Shown piece after piece: positions 19,312 to 61,595 of a stretch of DNA of 64,000 nucleotides. Made by a program: the position numbers and the translations under genes. This DNA is from a virus. Positions within the stretch are counted from its first letter, which is position 1. Every line of letters begins with the position of its first letter. The notes under the pieces were generated by a model, which was not told the DNA's origin, searched no databases, and saw only the letters and a program-made list of their open reading frames with translations. The DNA is taken from positions 19,698 to 83,697 of IMG/VR virus record IMGVR_UViG_3300020446_001892; one strand, written 5' to 3'.

Positions 19312-19783
19312 CTATGTGTGATATCTTTTGCCATGTAAAGGGTGTATAGATAGCACTATTGGCACCATGCTCTGCACATTCTGCTGACTCGCACCATACT
19401 CTGCCACCTGTGTCATTCTTAACAAGTTCATTAGCAAAGTTCCAAGCATGATAAGCAAAACGCTCTGCACCTACACCATCAAGTTGTACAATCTGTGCAA
19501 GTCCTTTTGTCTCAAGCAATAGTAATTCGTCTTTCATTGGATCATTTTTATCAATCACAGTTTTGTGATCAAAAGTATCTTCTAGCCATTGCTTCAAAGG
19601 TTTCAATCCACCAAAGTCCTGTACCCAGTTCCTATGATCTAAATCACTAGAACCAAACGTAAACTTAAATTGTAAACTGTATCCATGTAAAAATCTACAG
19701 TGTGAATGATCTGCGTGTGGTTGACGGAACACCGCTGAAAGTCCGATGTTGTGTCCGTATGTTTTTGTACTGTAATAAGCCAT
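19304..19783 (-). CDS. queD: 6-pyruvoyl-tetrahydropterin synthase / QueD family
   Basis: HCRFLHGY, DFGGLK, FDH, terminal ExxxNSA. Confidence 0.85.
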   Translation of the reverse strand: MAYYSTKTYGHNIGLSAVFRQPHADHSHCRFLHGYSLQFKFTFGSSDLDHRNWVQDFGGLKPLKQWLEDTFDHKTVIDKNDPMKDELLLLETKGLAQIVQLDGVGAERFAYHAWNFANELVKNDTGGRVWCESAECAEHGANSAIYTPFTWQKISHIDG

Positions 19784-25994: not shown

Positions 25995-26069
25995 TGGCAT
26001 AGGTGGAAGGAATCGAACCCTCTCTTTCAGGTTTGGAATCTGACGTGCAACCATTGACACTTCACCTAC
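25995..26069 (-). tRNA. tRNA-Trp(CCA)
   Basis: Acceptor GTAGGTG/CACCTAT, G73, CCA; anticodon loop TTCCAAA; GGTTCGATTCC T arm. Confidence 0.9.
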
Positions 26070-59301: not shown

Positions 59302-59331
59302 AGAGAGTGTTGCAATAATACAACACTCTCT
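59302..59331 (-). terminator. 11-bp hairpin at the 3' end of the tmRNA coding piece
   Basis: AGAGAGTGTTG/CAACACTCTCT, short T tract. Confidence 0.6.
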
Positions 59332-59502
59332 ATGATTATTCTGTTGCTAGGTAATCAACCCCGGAAAGCCTAATTAGGCCGCCATTGCCATTTCTGGCGC
59401 ATAATTGTCATTTGCAATTATAAAGTTTCTTCGCGTTAACCGAGCTTAGATCCGGATAACTCCACTCATCTATTAACTACCAGTCGATCCTAGTTCGGCC
59501 CC
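59332..59502 (-). ncRNA. ssrA: Permuted tmRNA, coding piece (3' end approximate); tag ANDNYAPEMAMAA at 59415-59374
   Basis: 5' GGGGCCGAACTAGGATCGAC; resume GCA AAT GAC AAT; tag ends Ala-Ala-stop. Confidence 0.92.
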
Positions 59503-59604
59503 ATCATAAACACACCAATAGTACTTAACAAAATATTCTTTCCATCGATCTCCATATACCTTAATATATGCTTCTCTTATGAAATCAAATTCTGCTTTAC
59601 TCAC
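59473..59604 (-). CDS. Possible 43-aa ORF reading from the intervening segment into the tmRNA 5' end
   Basis: GTG start with AAGGA SD, overlapping the previous stop; MSKAEFDFIREAYIKVYGDRWKEYFVKYYWCVYDGAELGSTGS. Confidence 0.4.
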   Translation of the reverse strand: MSKAEFDFIREAYIKVYGDRWKEYFVKYYWCVYDGAELGSTGS

Positions 59605-59815
59605 AAGTTTCCTTACCACTACATTCTGCAGGGAAACAATGACCTTTCATATGATAGTAACTATTCTCATAACTATGATTCCACATTTTCTGATCTATCA
59701 TATATTCACATTGCGGTTTAGACATAGGTTGTTGTAAAGCAATTTGACCAATGTAATGATCATTGCCGTACATGTCTGCACCCCACATTGTAATTACTAA
59801 TATAAATTCCTTCAT
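59597..59815 (-). CDS. 72-aa protein inside the tmRNA intervening segment
   Basis: GGAG SD 6 nt before ATG 59815; hydrophobic N-terminus, 4 Cys. Confidence 0.65.
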   Translation of the reverse strand: MKEFILVITMWGADMYGNDHYIGQIALQQPMSKPQCEYMIDQKMWNHSYENSYYHMKGHCFPAECSGKETCE

Positions 59816-59834
59816 GCTCTTCTCCGTGTGTTTA

Positions 59835-59897
59835 TGGTGGAGCCGCCGGGTACCGCCCCCGGGTCCTGTATAGCGTTTGAATTGCTTCAACGTTACA
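59835..59897 (-). ncRNA. ssrA: Permuted tmRNA, acceptor piece (5' end approximate)
   Basis: CCGGG-GGCGGTA-CCCGG T arm; CGGCTCC-A-CCA pairs with GGGGCCG giving G3.U70. Confidence 0.92.
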
Positions 59898-59900
59898 TTG

Positions 59901-59931
59901 TATTTATAACACTATATATTATAAATGTCAA
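59901..59931 (-). promoter_or_regulatory. tmRNA promoter: sigma70 plus overlapping late element
   Basis: TTGACA-17-TATAAA with extended TG; TATAAATA at 59908-59901. Confidence 0.8.
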
Positions 59932-60431: not shown

Positions 60432-61595
60432 TTATAATTTCTGTTGTATTTGTTCTACAATATCTTTAGCGGTATATGCACTGAGAGTCCAGCCTAGATG
60501 TCCATGTCCAGTGTTGTAAAAAACTCTTCTTGTATTTGTGCTCTGTCTAACGATGGGCATCATATTAGGTGTCATAGGTCTTAGTCCAGCCCACGGAGTA
60601 ATATTTTCTGTATTAATACCTGGAAATATTTTTTCACTCCAATCGATTAACGGCTTTATTCTTTTTTGTATAATATCGGTATTATATCCATTAAATTCTG
60701 CTGTGCCAGCGACACGTAACCTATCTTCTCCTAATCTTGCTGTAACTATTTTTGCTTCATCATCTAACATACTGGTCCATGGTGCAACATCTGGTTTGTT
60801 GATGGTTATAGAATATCCTTTGACAGGATAAATGTCTAATCTATCACCAATTGTTTTTGCAAGATTCCTTGAACCTATACCTGCACATATAACTACAGGC
60901 CCTCTAAAATGATTTAAATCTTTTATATTTTGTATATTCCTTTGTGCATATTTCACTTTGTATTTGTCTTGTAAAACCTTTGTAAGTTGCACACAAAATT
61001 TATGAATATCTCCTGTGAAGTCTGTAGTATTATACATTCCGCCAAGTATTTTAGGCGAATGCACAAGGGCTGGTTCAATTTGTCTACATTCTTCTGCTGA
61101 TACTGCCCATCTATTCAAACCTGCTTTTTTATAAATTTCATTTACTCTTTTTGCATTTTCAAATTCTTTTGGGTTTGTATAGATATGCAAAATTCCTTTT
61201 TCTACTTTATCAAATTTAATATCTTCAAAAAAAGCAATTTCTTTTAAAAGTTTATGTGCTTGTAATGCCATTACGCAAGTATCAAATGTGCATTTATCTC
61301 CATTAGGTATGGCTTTGATAAATTTTATCAACCAACTATATTTTTCTATATTGAAAGATGGATTTATTTTTAGTGGAGCATCTGCTGTTGCTAACCATTT
61401 TACAGCTTTTAAAATACTTCTAAAGCTGTTCCACACTTCTGCGTTAGACGCACTGAGTTGACCTCCGTTAGCATAGGAGGTTGCCATTGCAGGGTATCGA
61501 CGTTGGTCGAAAATAGTAACATCGTACCCTGACTTGGCTAAGTTGTAAGCAGTTGTTATACCGGTGATGCCGGCACCTATTACTGCCGCTTGCAT
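60432..61595 (-). CDS. dadA: D-amino acid dehydrogenase (FAD-dependent)
   Basis: GAGITG, TSYANGGQLS, IYPVKGYSIT, RVAGTAE, WAGLRPMTP, NTGHGHLGWT. Confidence 0.88.
   Translation of the reverse strand: MQAAVIGAGITGITTAYNLAKSGYDVTIFDQRRYPAMATSYANGGQLSASNAEVWNSFRSILKAVKWLATADAPLKINPSFNIEKYSWLIKFIKAIPNGDKCTFDTCVMALQAHKLLKEIAFFEDIKFDKVEKGILHIYTNPKEFENAKRVNEIYKKAGLNRWAVSAEECRQIEPALVHSPKILGGMYNTTDFTGDIHKFCVQLTKVLQDKYKVKYAQRNIQNIKDLNHFRGPVVICAGIGSRNLAKTIGDRLDIYPVKGYSITINKPDVAPWTSMLDDEAKIVTARLGEDRLRVAGTAEFNGYNTDIIQKRIKPLIDWSEKIFPGINTENITPWAGLRPMTPNMMPIVRQSTNTRRVFYNTGHGHLGWTLSAYTAKDIVEQIQQKL

Follow-up and report, generated by a model that had tools for sequence, protein, structure and literature searches.

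The window, a 64,000-nt stretch of viral DNA (positions 19,698 to 83,697 of IMG/VR record IMGVR_UViG_3300020446_001892), carries on its minus strand a gene for transfer-messenger RNA (tmRNA) whose two pieces are encoded in permuted order, separated by a spacer that holds two open reading frames (ORFs). A permuted two-piece tmRNA had been proposed here by a model working from the letters alone (hereafter the sequence-only reading), and Rfam bears this out with two families: RF01849 (alpha_tmRNA) matches 59950-59331 (-) with 88.9 bits against a gathering threshold of 50, over model positions 1-355 of 355, and RF04321 (tmRNA_permuted) matches 59896-59374 (-) with 88.4 bits against a threshold of 47, over 1-213 of 213. 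Both alignments contain a single long unaligned insert, which runs from the CCA end to the GGGG start. The acceptor piece lies upstream of the coding piece, whose first nucleotide (G1) is 59502, and GGGGCCG at the start of the latter pairs with CGGCUCC of the former to give a 7-bp acceptor stem with G3 opposite U. The T-arm reads CCGGG/GGCGGUA/CCCGG in the Rfam alignment and the 3' acceptor strand CGGCUCC-ACCA. The coding piece aligns with those of relatives, and the tag that it encodes, ANDNYAPEMAMAA, is the same as that called by ARAGORN in relative L288. Of the two tools that the sequence-only reading had named for checking the gene, Rfam thus finds it and ARAGORN does not: run on the window, ARAGORN reports three tRNAs only and no permuted tmRNA. 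Indeed, it detects five of six relatives with a short spacer and none of four loci with a long one, so that, counting the window, 0/5 long-spacer genes are found.

By analogy with cellular permuted tmRNAs, the spacer would be absent from the mature RNA. Two acceptor-arm pattern scans of viral contigs yielded at least 224 genes for which a coding piece was found, with at least 175 distinct spacers, and the comparison of spacer length and ORF content that had been called for places the window's spacer as the longest of the 175 distinct alpha-type spacers listed (the other 174 measure 3-266 nt), with ORFs that are conserved in relatives. As had been claimed, the segment is closed by a perfect inverted repeat: 59836-59826 and 59515-59505 are exact reverse complements over 11 bp, including the CA of the CCA end. 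In the predicted precursor fold, both the minimum free energy and the centroid structure have an acceptor stem that is extended by pairing of the closing arms (z -3.7). Such helices are a general property of these genes. In 136 non-redundant loops they have a median of 10 consecutive pairs, and a closing helix of at least 7 bp occurs in 79/136 loops against 1/136 shuffles, built from 80 different 9-nt arm sequences. Features of the gene are collected in Table 1.

Table 1 Features of the tmRNA gene and its spacer, in the order of transcription (positions in the window)
Feature	Position	Strand	Remarks
-35-like hexamer TTGACA, putative early promoter	59926..59931	-	sequence reading; TTGAC at the same place in 5 relatives
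-10-like hexamer TATAAA	59903..59908	-	17 nt after the -35; start predicted at ~59896
Acceptor (tRNA-like 3') piece	59835..59896	-	Rfam alignments; encoded CCA 59837-59835
Intervening segment (spacer), 332 nt	59503..59834	-	between the CCA end and G1
5' closing arm UAAACACAC	59826..59834	-	with CA of CCA makes the 11-bp repeat 59826-59836; same arm in relatives
ORF72, 72 codons + stop	59597..59815	-	coding 59815-59600, stop 59599-59597
Resident spacer ORF, 43 codons + stop	59473..59604	-	GTG start 59604, UAA 59475-59473
3' closing arm GUGUGUUUA	59507..59515	-	encodes W-C-V-Y of the resident ORF; then UGAU, then G1
Coding (mRNA-like 5') piece	59331..59502	-	begins GGGGCCG; Rfam; 3' limit is the end of the match
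Tag reading frame ANDNYAPEMAMAA plus stop	59374..59415	-	translated; starts with Ala resume codon, ends hydrophobic + AA-stop
11-bp hairpin immediately behind the tmRNA, which may be a terminator or protect the 3' end	59302..59331	-	terminator scan scored the + strand

Metagenome assemblies break and rejoin at conserved tmRNA sequence, and contigs from the runs compared with the window do break inside the conserved tmRNA parts, which could in principle have produced a chimera of two phage variants. We consider this hardly credible here, because in three runs, each from a different study, single contigs with 0 mismatches reach from the coding-piece start across the full spacer into the acceptor piece (X1, 59463-59866; X2, 59463-59857; X4, 59481-59866), one of which may be the window's source sample. 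The same two-ORF layout is furthermore present in five metagenome contigs from other assemblies (L293, L294, L295, L309 and L310); Rfam tmRNA matches span ~470-607 nt in the first four, and L310 ends at a contig edge. Runs X1, X2 and X15 also contain several further tmRNA genes that match both pieces of the window's gene with 8-36 other letters between them; many related short-spacer tmRNAs co-occur with this phage in the same samples.

The ORF nearer the coding piece, which had been noted as a possible 43-residue frame reading into the tmRNA 5' end, proves to be a conserved resident of tmRNA spacers. It crosses the 3' closing arm and continues 27 nt into the mature coding piece, and its stop lies 28-30 nt inside the mature RNA. 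A candidate ribosome-binding sequence, AAGGA (59614-59610), lies 5 nt before its GTG, within the conserved G-K-E codons of ORF72. Protein homologues number six, at 76-93% identity, all with ATG starts, and the family extends over 42 loci (9 viral and 33 metagenome). At 23 of these (18 distinct) the ORF stands alone in a spacer of ~100-120 nt, at five (4 distinct) it follows ORF72 in a spacer of 326-332 nt, and at 14 (11 distinct) it is free-standing. Rfam, applied to 29 of the 42 loci, places a permuted tmRNA around the ORF in 15/15 in-spacer cases and 0/14 free-standing ones. The tmRNA spacer is the usual home of the 43-codon family (28/42 loci), and reading across the 3' arm and 27 nt into the mature RNA is common to every in-spacer member seen.

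The peptide itself appears to be under selection. Over the first 81 nt of 14 distinct sequences, the 21-nt arm region being left out since it is also constrained as RNA, differences by codon position are 591/401/1175, and the ratio of nonsynonymous to synonymous substitution (dN/dS) is 0.08 in frame versus 1.25 and 1.45 in the shifted frames. A conserved core begins near residue 5 and extends to W-x-V-Y, just ahead of the RNase P site, with 8 invariant residues across 20 members. The resident ORF has no Pfam match (E up to 1); against PDB profiles it gives three matches with E 0.13-0.22, which we take as chance, and its family has no relatives in 185,579 species genomes.

Free-standing copies take several forms. 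At L289:973-1122, and identically in L311 and L312, the tail of the ORF consists of ~18 nt from the 5' end of a tmRNA; there is no acceptor piece and no Rfam tmRNA at these loci, and the GTG start overlaps the stop of the upstream ORF. This looks like a spacer gene that remained after loss of the tmRNA, or one that moved together with a scrap of it. In L292 and its relatives the homologue carries an unrelated Cys-rich tail and lies inside an ordinary operon, and at four loci (L317, L321, L322 and L325) the protein ends 0-2 residues from the end of the core. Locus L324 has tRNAs at 11-83, 92-162, 659-732, 747-820 and 834-904 and the resident homologue at 338-472; in L317 a tRNA (373-446) directly precedes it (497-604). 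The family tends to occur in processed stable-RNA transcripts.

The upstream frame, ORF72, is present as had been claimed, with a Shine-Dalgarno sequence GGAG (59825-59822) placed six nt before the ATG and directly after the 5' arm. It has 30 protein homologues, and the family was found at 42 viral loci. Rfam, run on 40 of these loci (L143 and L155 were left out), finds a complete permuted tmRNA at nine, each time with the ORF72 homologue following immediately behind it (in L122, for instance, the tmRNA occupies 2006-2403 and the homologue begins at 2423); the remaining 31/40 have no tmRNA within their flanks. The in-spacer copies fall into two lineages, and differences by codon position (22/13/84 in lineage A, with dN/dS 0.07; 10/6/28 in lineage B) point to purifying selection. 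In L293-L295 the start codon is TTG at the position of the window's ATG, behind the same GGAG. ORF72 has no Pfam match (E up to 1) and no PDB profile match; PHROGs returned 0 matches for eight proteins, the ESM Atlas returned nothing but viral hypothetical clusters for ORF72 and nothing for P0036, and among deposited phages there were no relatives of either protein. Both families appear, from the sequences recovered so far, to belong exclusively to uncultured marine viruses and to be positionally tied to tmRNA and tRNA genes. The proposal that the loop doubles as a messenger stands insofar as it looks protein-coding, both ORFs bearing the marks of purifying selection within the spacer.

An alignment of the window with five short-spacer relatives suggests how the second gene arrived. 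All six share CCA-UAAACACA(C/U), after which four relatives continue with GAG(G) and the resident ATG, while the window continues with GGAG, the ORF72 ATG and 72 codons. The end of ORF72 (...UGU-GAG-UAA) overlaps the resident start (GUG-AGU-AAA) by 8 nt. ORF72 therefore reads as a captured gene that lies behind the 5' closing arm and ahead of the resident ORF. The junctions are built in the same way in L293-L295 (ORF72 89% identical) and in L309 and L310 (ORF72 57%, resident ORF 66-68% identical). By our reading of the junctions, the ORF72 end and the resident start share TGAGTAA or TGACTAA.

In a tmRNA tree built without ORF72 (with identical rows collapsed and the truncated L300 and L310 excluded), the four lineage-A genes group together (support 83/94) inside the short-spacer genes, L309 falls elsewhere, and the best tree needs 2 changes of state. 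A single origin of the layout with ORF72 in the spacer was considered and rejected: the approximately unbiased (AU) test rejects one clade at p 0.0185, a value to be read in the light of the long branch of L309, the exclusion of L310 and the definition of the group after the data had been seen. On the sequences, a single ancient event seems less likely than two captures or than a cassette exchanged among tmRNA genes.

A further question is whether the tmRNA survived the acquisition. The window's gene scores lower with Rfam (88.9 bits) than its short-spacer relatives (106-137 bits), ARAGORN misses 5/5 of the long-spacer genes tried, and none of the other 174 distinct spacers listed is as long; these points would fit a 225-nt insertion that inactivated the tmRNA and left only the protein genes, or nothing, functional. 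The lower score is nevertheless what a long insert is expected to produce, and the closing arms are perfect. Furthermore, the tRNA-like domain and closing helix have all 29 of their consensus pairs in each of the five long-spacer genes (15 short-spacer genes average 0.993), with compensatory change at 11/29 pairs in the set of 20 genes, and the tags of all five are intact and end in AA-stop, despite divergence of the ORF72 copies of the two lineages to 57-58% identity. An inactivated gene is accordingly improbable, and the long-spacer tmRNA has the sequence features of a maintained, working RNA.

The premise that the excised segment is normally non-coding fails for marine viral contigs, where the window is one case of several. 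Those relatives that carry ORF72 downstream of the tmRNA have a different ORF of 47 codons in the spacer, which is conserved across a 1-nt indel in the leader (pairwise dN/dS 0.03-0.45 in frame vs 0.39-2.53 off frame); further members of this family include one with an in-frame insertion of four residues. Differences by codon position and dN/dS likewise suggest coding selection in a group beginning MDEV... (25/15/57; 0.07), in a 62-residue Cys-rich protein (29/8/46; 0.18) and in two membrane peptides, one of 44 aa (19/10/40; 0.13) and one of 38 aa (8/5/23; 0.05). The Cys-rich spacer ORF of L089 (also in L118 and L186) shares 64% identity (E 5e-30) with a free-standing ORF at L122:1361-1612, which lies two genes upstream of the tmRNA there. 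The Cys-rich protein is thus a second family with members both in spacers and at ordinary positions. Five further unrelated groups of spacer ORFs thus bear the signature of coding selection, and the spacer seems to be a slot for small genes. Of the suggestion that the loop is a neutral landing site for cargo, the cargo slot holds good, given the apparent capture of ORF72 and these unrelated groups; its neutrality does not, since the arrangement appears to have been maintained while ORF72 diverged so far.

Spacer ORFs differ in where they end. Terminal ORFs of at least 25 codons, counted in 123 non-redundant loops, make up 11 loop-frame combinations in frame 0, 25 in frame 1 and 22 in frame 2, and of the last 20/22 stop at a UGA 4 nt before G1. 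A nonstop message as a general rule was also considered and set aside, as spacer ORFs do not avoid the UGA of the conserved (A/U)UGAU flank.

The reading that we favour, and regard as probably correct, is that the locus is a maintained phage gene for a permuted alpha-type tmRNA in which the stem-closed spacer acts as an expression slot for small protein genes, here two. One sigma-70-like early promoter would give a single precursor: a TTGAC...TATAA motif lies upstream of the acceptor piece in 6/6 aligned genes, and the start predicted from it in the window falls at about the first base of the RF04321 match. Ribosomes would load at the GGAG directly after the 5' arm and translate ORF72, and the resident ORF would be translated next, by coupling or through the AAGGA inside ORF72, all of this before the 3' arm has been made or as long as it is kept open. 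Once the ribosomes had gone, a helix of ~20 bp, composed of the acceptor stem and the arms, would form; RNase P would cut before G1 and the 3' side would be trimmed to CCA, leaving a two-piece tmRNA and a spacer RNA, the latter then being lost. Messenger use and maturation would be mutually exclusive on any one molecule, since the 5' arm adjoins the ribosome-binding site and both the 3' arm and the RNase P site lie within the resident ORF.

A single precursor is itself an assumption, and a promoter-like TTGTTA-17-TATGAT at 59531-59503, on the gene's strand, invites the view that an internal promoter drives the coding piece on its own and that the spacer is simply a two-gene intergenic region. 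We hold this to be very improbable. The -10 of that match is the conserved UAUGAU flank, from which a start ~7 nt downstream would truncate the tmRNA within its acceptor stem; the scan gives nine promoter-like sites against 4.8 (standard deviation 2.4) in shuffles, so that single matches weigh little; and the conserved, covarying closing arms would be purposeless unless the two pieces share one RNA.

The physical conflict between ribosome passage and the closing helix follows from the anatomy of the locus, and the sequence-only reading had made of it a gate, with translation of the second ORF controlling maturation of the tmRNA. On that account the resident ORF is there mainly so that ribosomes hold the precursor open, and tmRNA output falls when free ribosomes are plentiful and rises when they are scarce. 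The resident ORF does cover the 3' arm (59515-59507) and the 5' acceptor strand, such that a ribosome on it would prevent the helix; the families of the L122 and MDEV types likewise read across G1, and the ribosome-binding site adjoins the 5' arm. A device that needed nothing except the act of translation would, however, require no particular peptide, and the resident peptide is conserved (dN/dS 0.08; 8 invariant residues in 20 members). The gene is also carried without a tmRNA at 14 free-standing loci, 22/58 loop-frame combinations lie in the frame that ends at the UGA before G1, such that crossing the cleavage site is not required, and insertion of ORF72 upstream would alter the timing, yet has been tolerated, probably twice. 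Because the peptide is conserved, survives without tmRNA and has counterparts that stop before G1, gating is unlikely to be the purpose of the ORF, and the claim is not supported as its main role.

A related idea starts from the position of the resident stop inside the mature RNA. The RNase P cut would remove this stop, and the product would be tagged by tmRNA and destroyed, such that the small protein accumulates only when trans-translation is saturated or absent, in the manner of arfA. The conserved core ends in ...W-C-V-Y-D exactly at the cleavage site, and the free-standing proteins of L317, L321, L322 and L325 stop there to within 0-2 residues. At other loci, however, the free-standing homologue carries a long tail of unrelated sequence, and the arrangement is not general, as frame-2 spacer ORFs keep their own stop before G1; we therefore attach little weight to it. 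arfA is regulated by nonstop mRNA (PMC10107115), and the likeness is that loss of a stop codon through RNA processing would tie the fate of a protein to trans-translation, which is here a possibility only and one that is inapplicable to spacer ORFs ending before G1.

It is tempting to speculate that the expression slot is also timed and self-erasing. In this admittedly doubtful extension, loading would be confined to the co-transcriptional interval before the 3' arm is made, and each precursor would yield a small fixed number of proteins before folding, RNase P cleavage and release of tmRNA. It may likewise be imagined, at the same low level of confidence, that late translation of ORFs crossing G1 takes place on a nonstop message whose product is tagged by the newly made tmRNA. 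Capture of ORF72 would then, just as speculatively, have lengthened the interval about three-fold (332 vs ~119 nt) and added a second protein to a dose-locked unit. If true, early small-protein dosage and ribosome-rescue capacity would be hard-wired in one transcript.

Several observations weigh against the expression-slot reading. We know of no phage tmRNA for which excision of a 332-nt spacer has been shown. SmpB is normally supplied by the host; it (PF01668) was not found on the 83.7-kb contig behind the window, which is ~23% complete. All dN/dS values given here are sums over non-independent pairs of short sequences without a significance test, and part of each ORF is under RNA constraint too. 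The promoter consensus scan omits the TTGACA-17-TATAAA site, whose -10 lacks a T at position 6, and the hairpin behind the tmRNA has a weak U tract on the gene's minus strand, which makes a terminator role uncertain. With a TTG start, translation of ORF72 in L293-L295 may be weak. Finally, RNA run X15 covers conserved tmRNA parts only, with mismatches and no cover of the spacer, and its uncovered parts prove nothing; the shares of the other RNA runs are low and tell equally little about the spacer.

The arrangement can be set beside several known systems. Cellular permuted tmRNA was reportedly described from Alphaproteobacteria (Caulobacter) by Keiler, Shapiro and Williams in 2000 and by Sharkady and Williams in 2004, and the window's gene would resemble it in placing the acceptor before the coding piece, in its single precursor cut by tRNA-processing enzymes and in the absence of the intervening sequence (IVS) from the mature RNA. 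Among phages, the main text of PMC9004378 places the tmRNA of the OM43 phage Melnitz directly after an early promoter and describes two-piece tmRNA genes of Melnitz, Mosig and pelagimyophage metagenome-assembled viral genomes (MAVGs) found with ARAGORN; what the window shares with these is a T4-like gene complement and an alpha-type permuted ssrA behind an early promoter, which in the window is putative. That main text does not use the word 'intervening' and describes no spacer genes. The SsrA annotation of Mosig has the same closing arm as the window, beginning UAAACACA; unlike in the window, the spacer (counted from the annotated SsrA) is ~44 nt and contains no ORF. In the Mosig genome (L328; MT647606.1 111467-112109) a hypothetical coding sequence, Mosig_00149, overlaps the first 29 nt of the annotated SsrA, and a late-transcription accessory gene starts within 2 nt of the other SsrA end.

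Permuted IVSs in the 2025 tmRNA database include an intact tRNA-Ala gene and a repetitive element, according to the main text of PMC11915505, in which the words 'open reading' are absent; the window's IVS differs in holding two protein genes that appear to be under selection. The same main text reports homing-endonuclease genes in 36/883 intron-form tmRNA genes (PMC11915505), which share with the window a protein gene nested in a segment removed from the mature RNA. Unlike in the intron form, nothing here would be spliced, the order is permuted and the small proteins lack any nuclease or other known domain; in the window, every group I intron family stays below the Rfam threshold, and the T-loop is uninterrupted. 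The nearest analogue outside tmRNA is the 23S rRNA IVS of Coxiella burnetii, which lies at helix 45, is cut by RNase III and has an S23p ORF that is decaying and seemingly not made in vivo (PMC4990558). It, too, is a stem-closed, ORF-bearing segment of a stable-RNA precursor that is excised and then degraded (PMC4990558); the window differs in that the host RNA is a tmRNA and that its ORFs, which have no Pfam match, appear to be under purifying selection. A literature search, with subscription papers and supplements lying outside it, gave no report of protein-coding spacers in permuted tmRNA genes.

tmRNA is a textbook non-coding stable RNA, and the segment cut from a permuted precursor is treated as disposable; here the discarded segment seems to carry selected protein genes, repeatedly and from several unrelated families. 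One transcript would be a messenger first and a ribosome-rescue RNA afterwards, and the same nucleotides would serve as codons, as a strand of the processing helix and as an RNase P site, making this a case in which translation and RNA processing compete. There are practical consequences as well: ARAGORN-based surveys of phage tmRNA miss the long-spacer genes (0/5), and gene callers will label spacer ORFs as ordinary hypothetical proteins, which may mask the tmRNA. Additionally, two new small-protein families linked to tmRNA and tRNA loci provide a starting point for work on their function.

The source of the window is an uncultured marine T4-like phage: the best match of its ribonucleotide reductase beta subunit is Pelagibacter phage Mosig (65.6%), followed by T4-like cyanophages. 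Among deposited phages, the whole region gave just a 43-nt match, to Rhodobacter phage RcRudolph, and blastn with the tmRNA coding piece gave no relatives. No glutamine riboswitch scored above the Rfam threshold in the window. A fourth tRNA at 25998-26069 (-), next to the tRNA-Cys and missing from the ARAGORN list, has an Rfam score of 45.4 bits. Three genes upstream of the tmRNA, a 387-residue ORF (60432-61595, -) begins with a GxGxxG dinucleotide-binding motif and has, by eye, the look of an oxidoreductase dependent on flavin adenine dinucleotide (FAD), of the D-amino-acid or glycine oxidase type.

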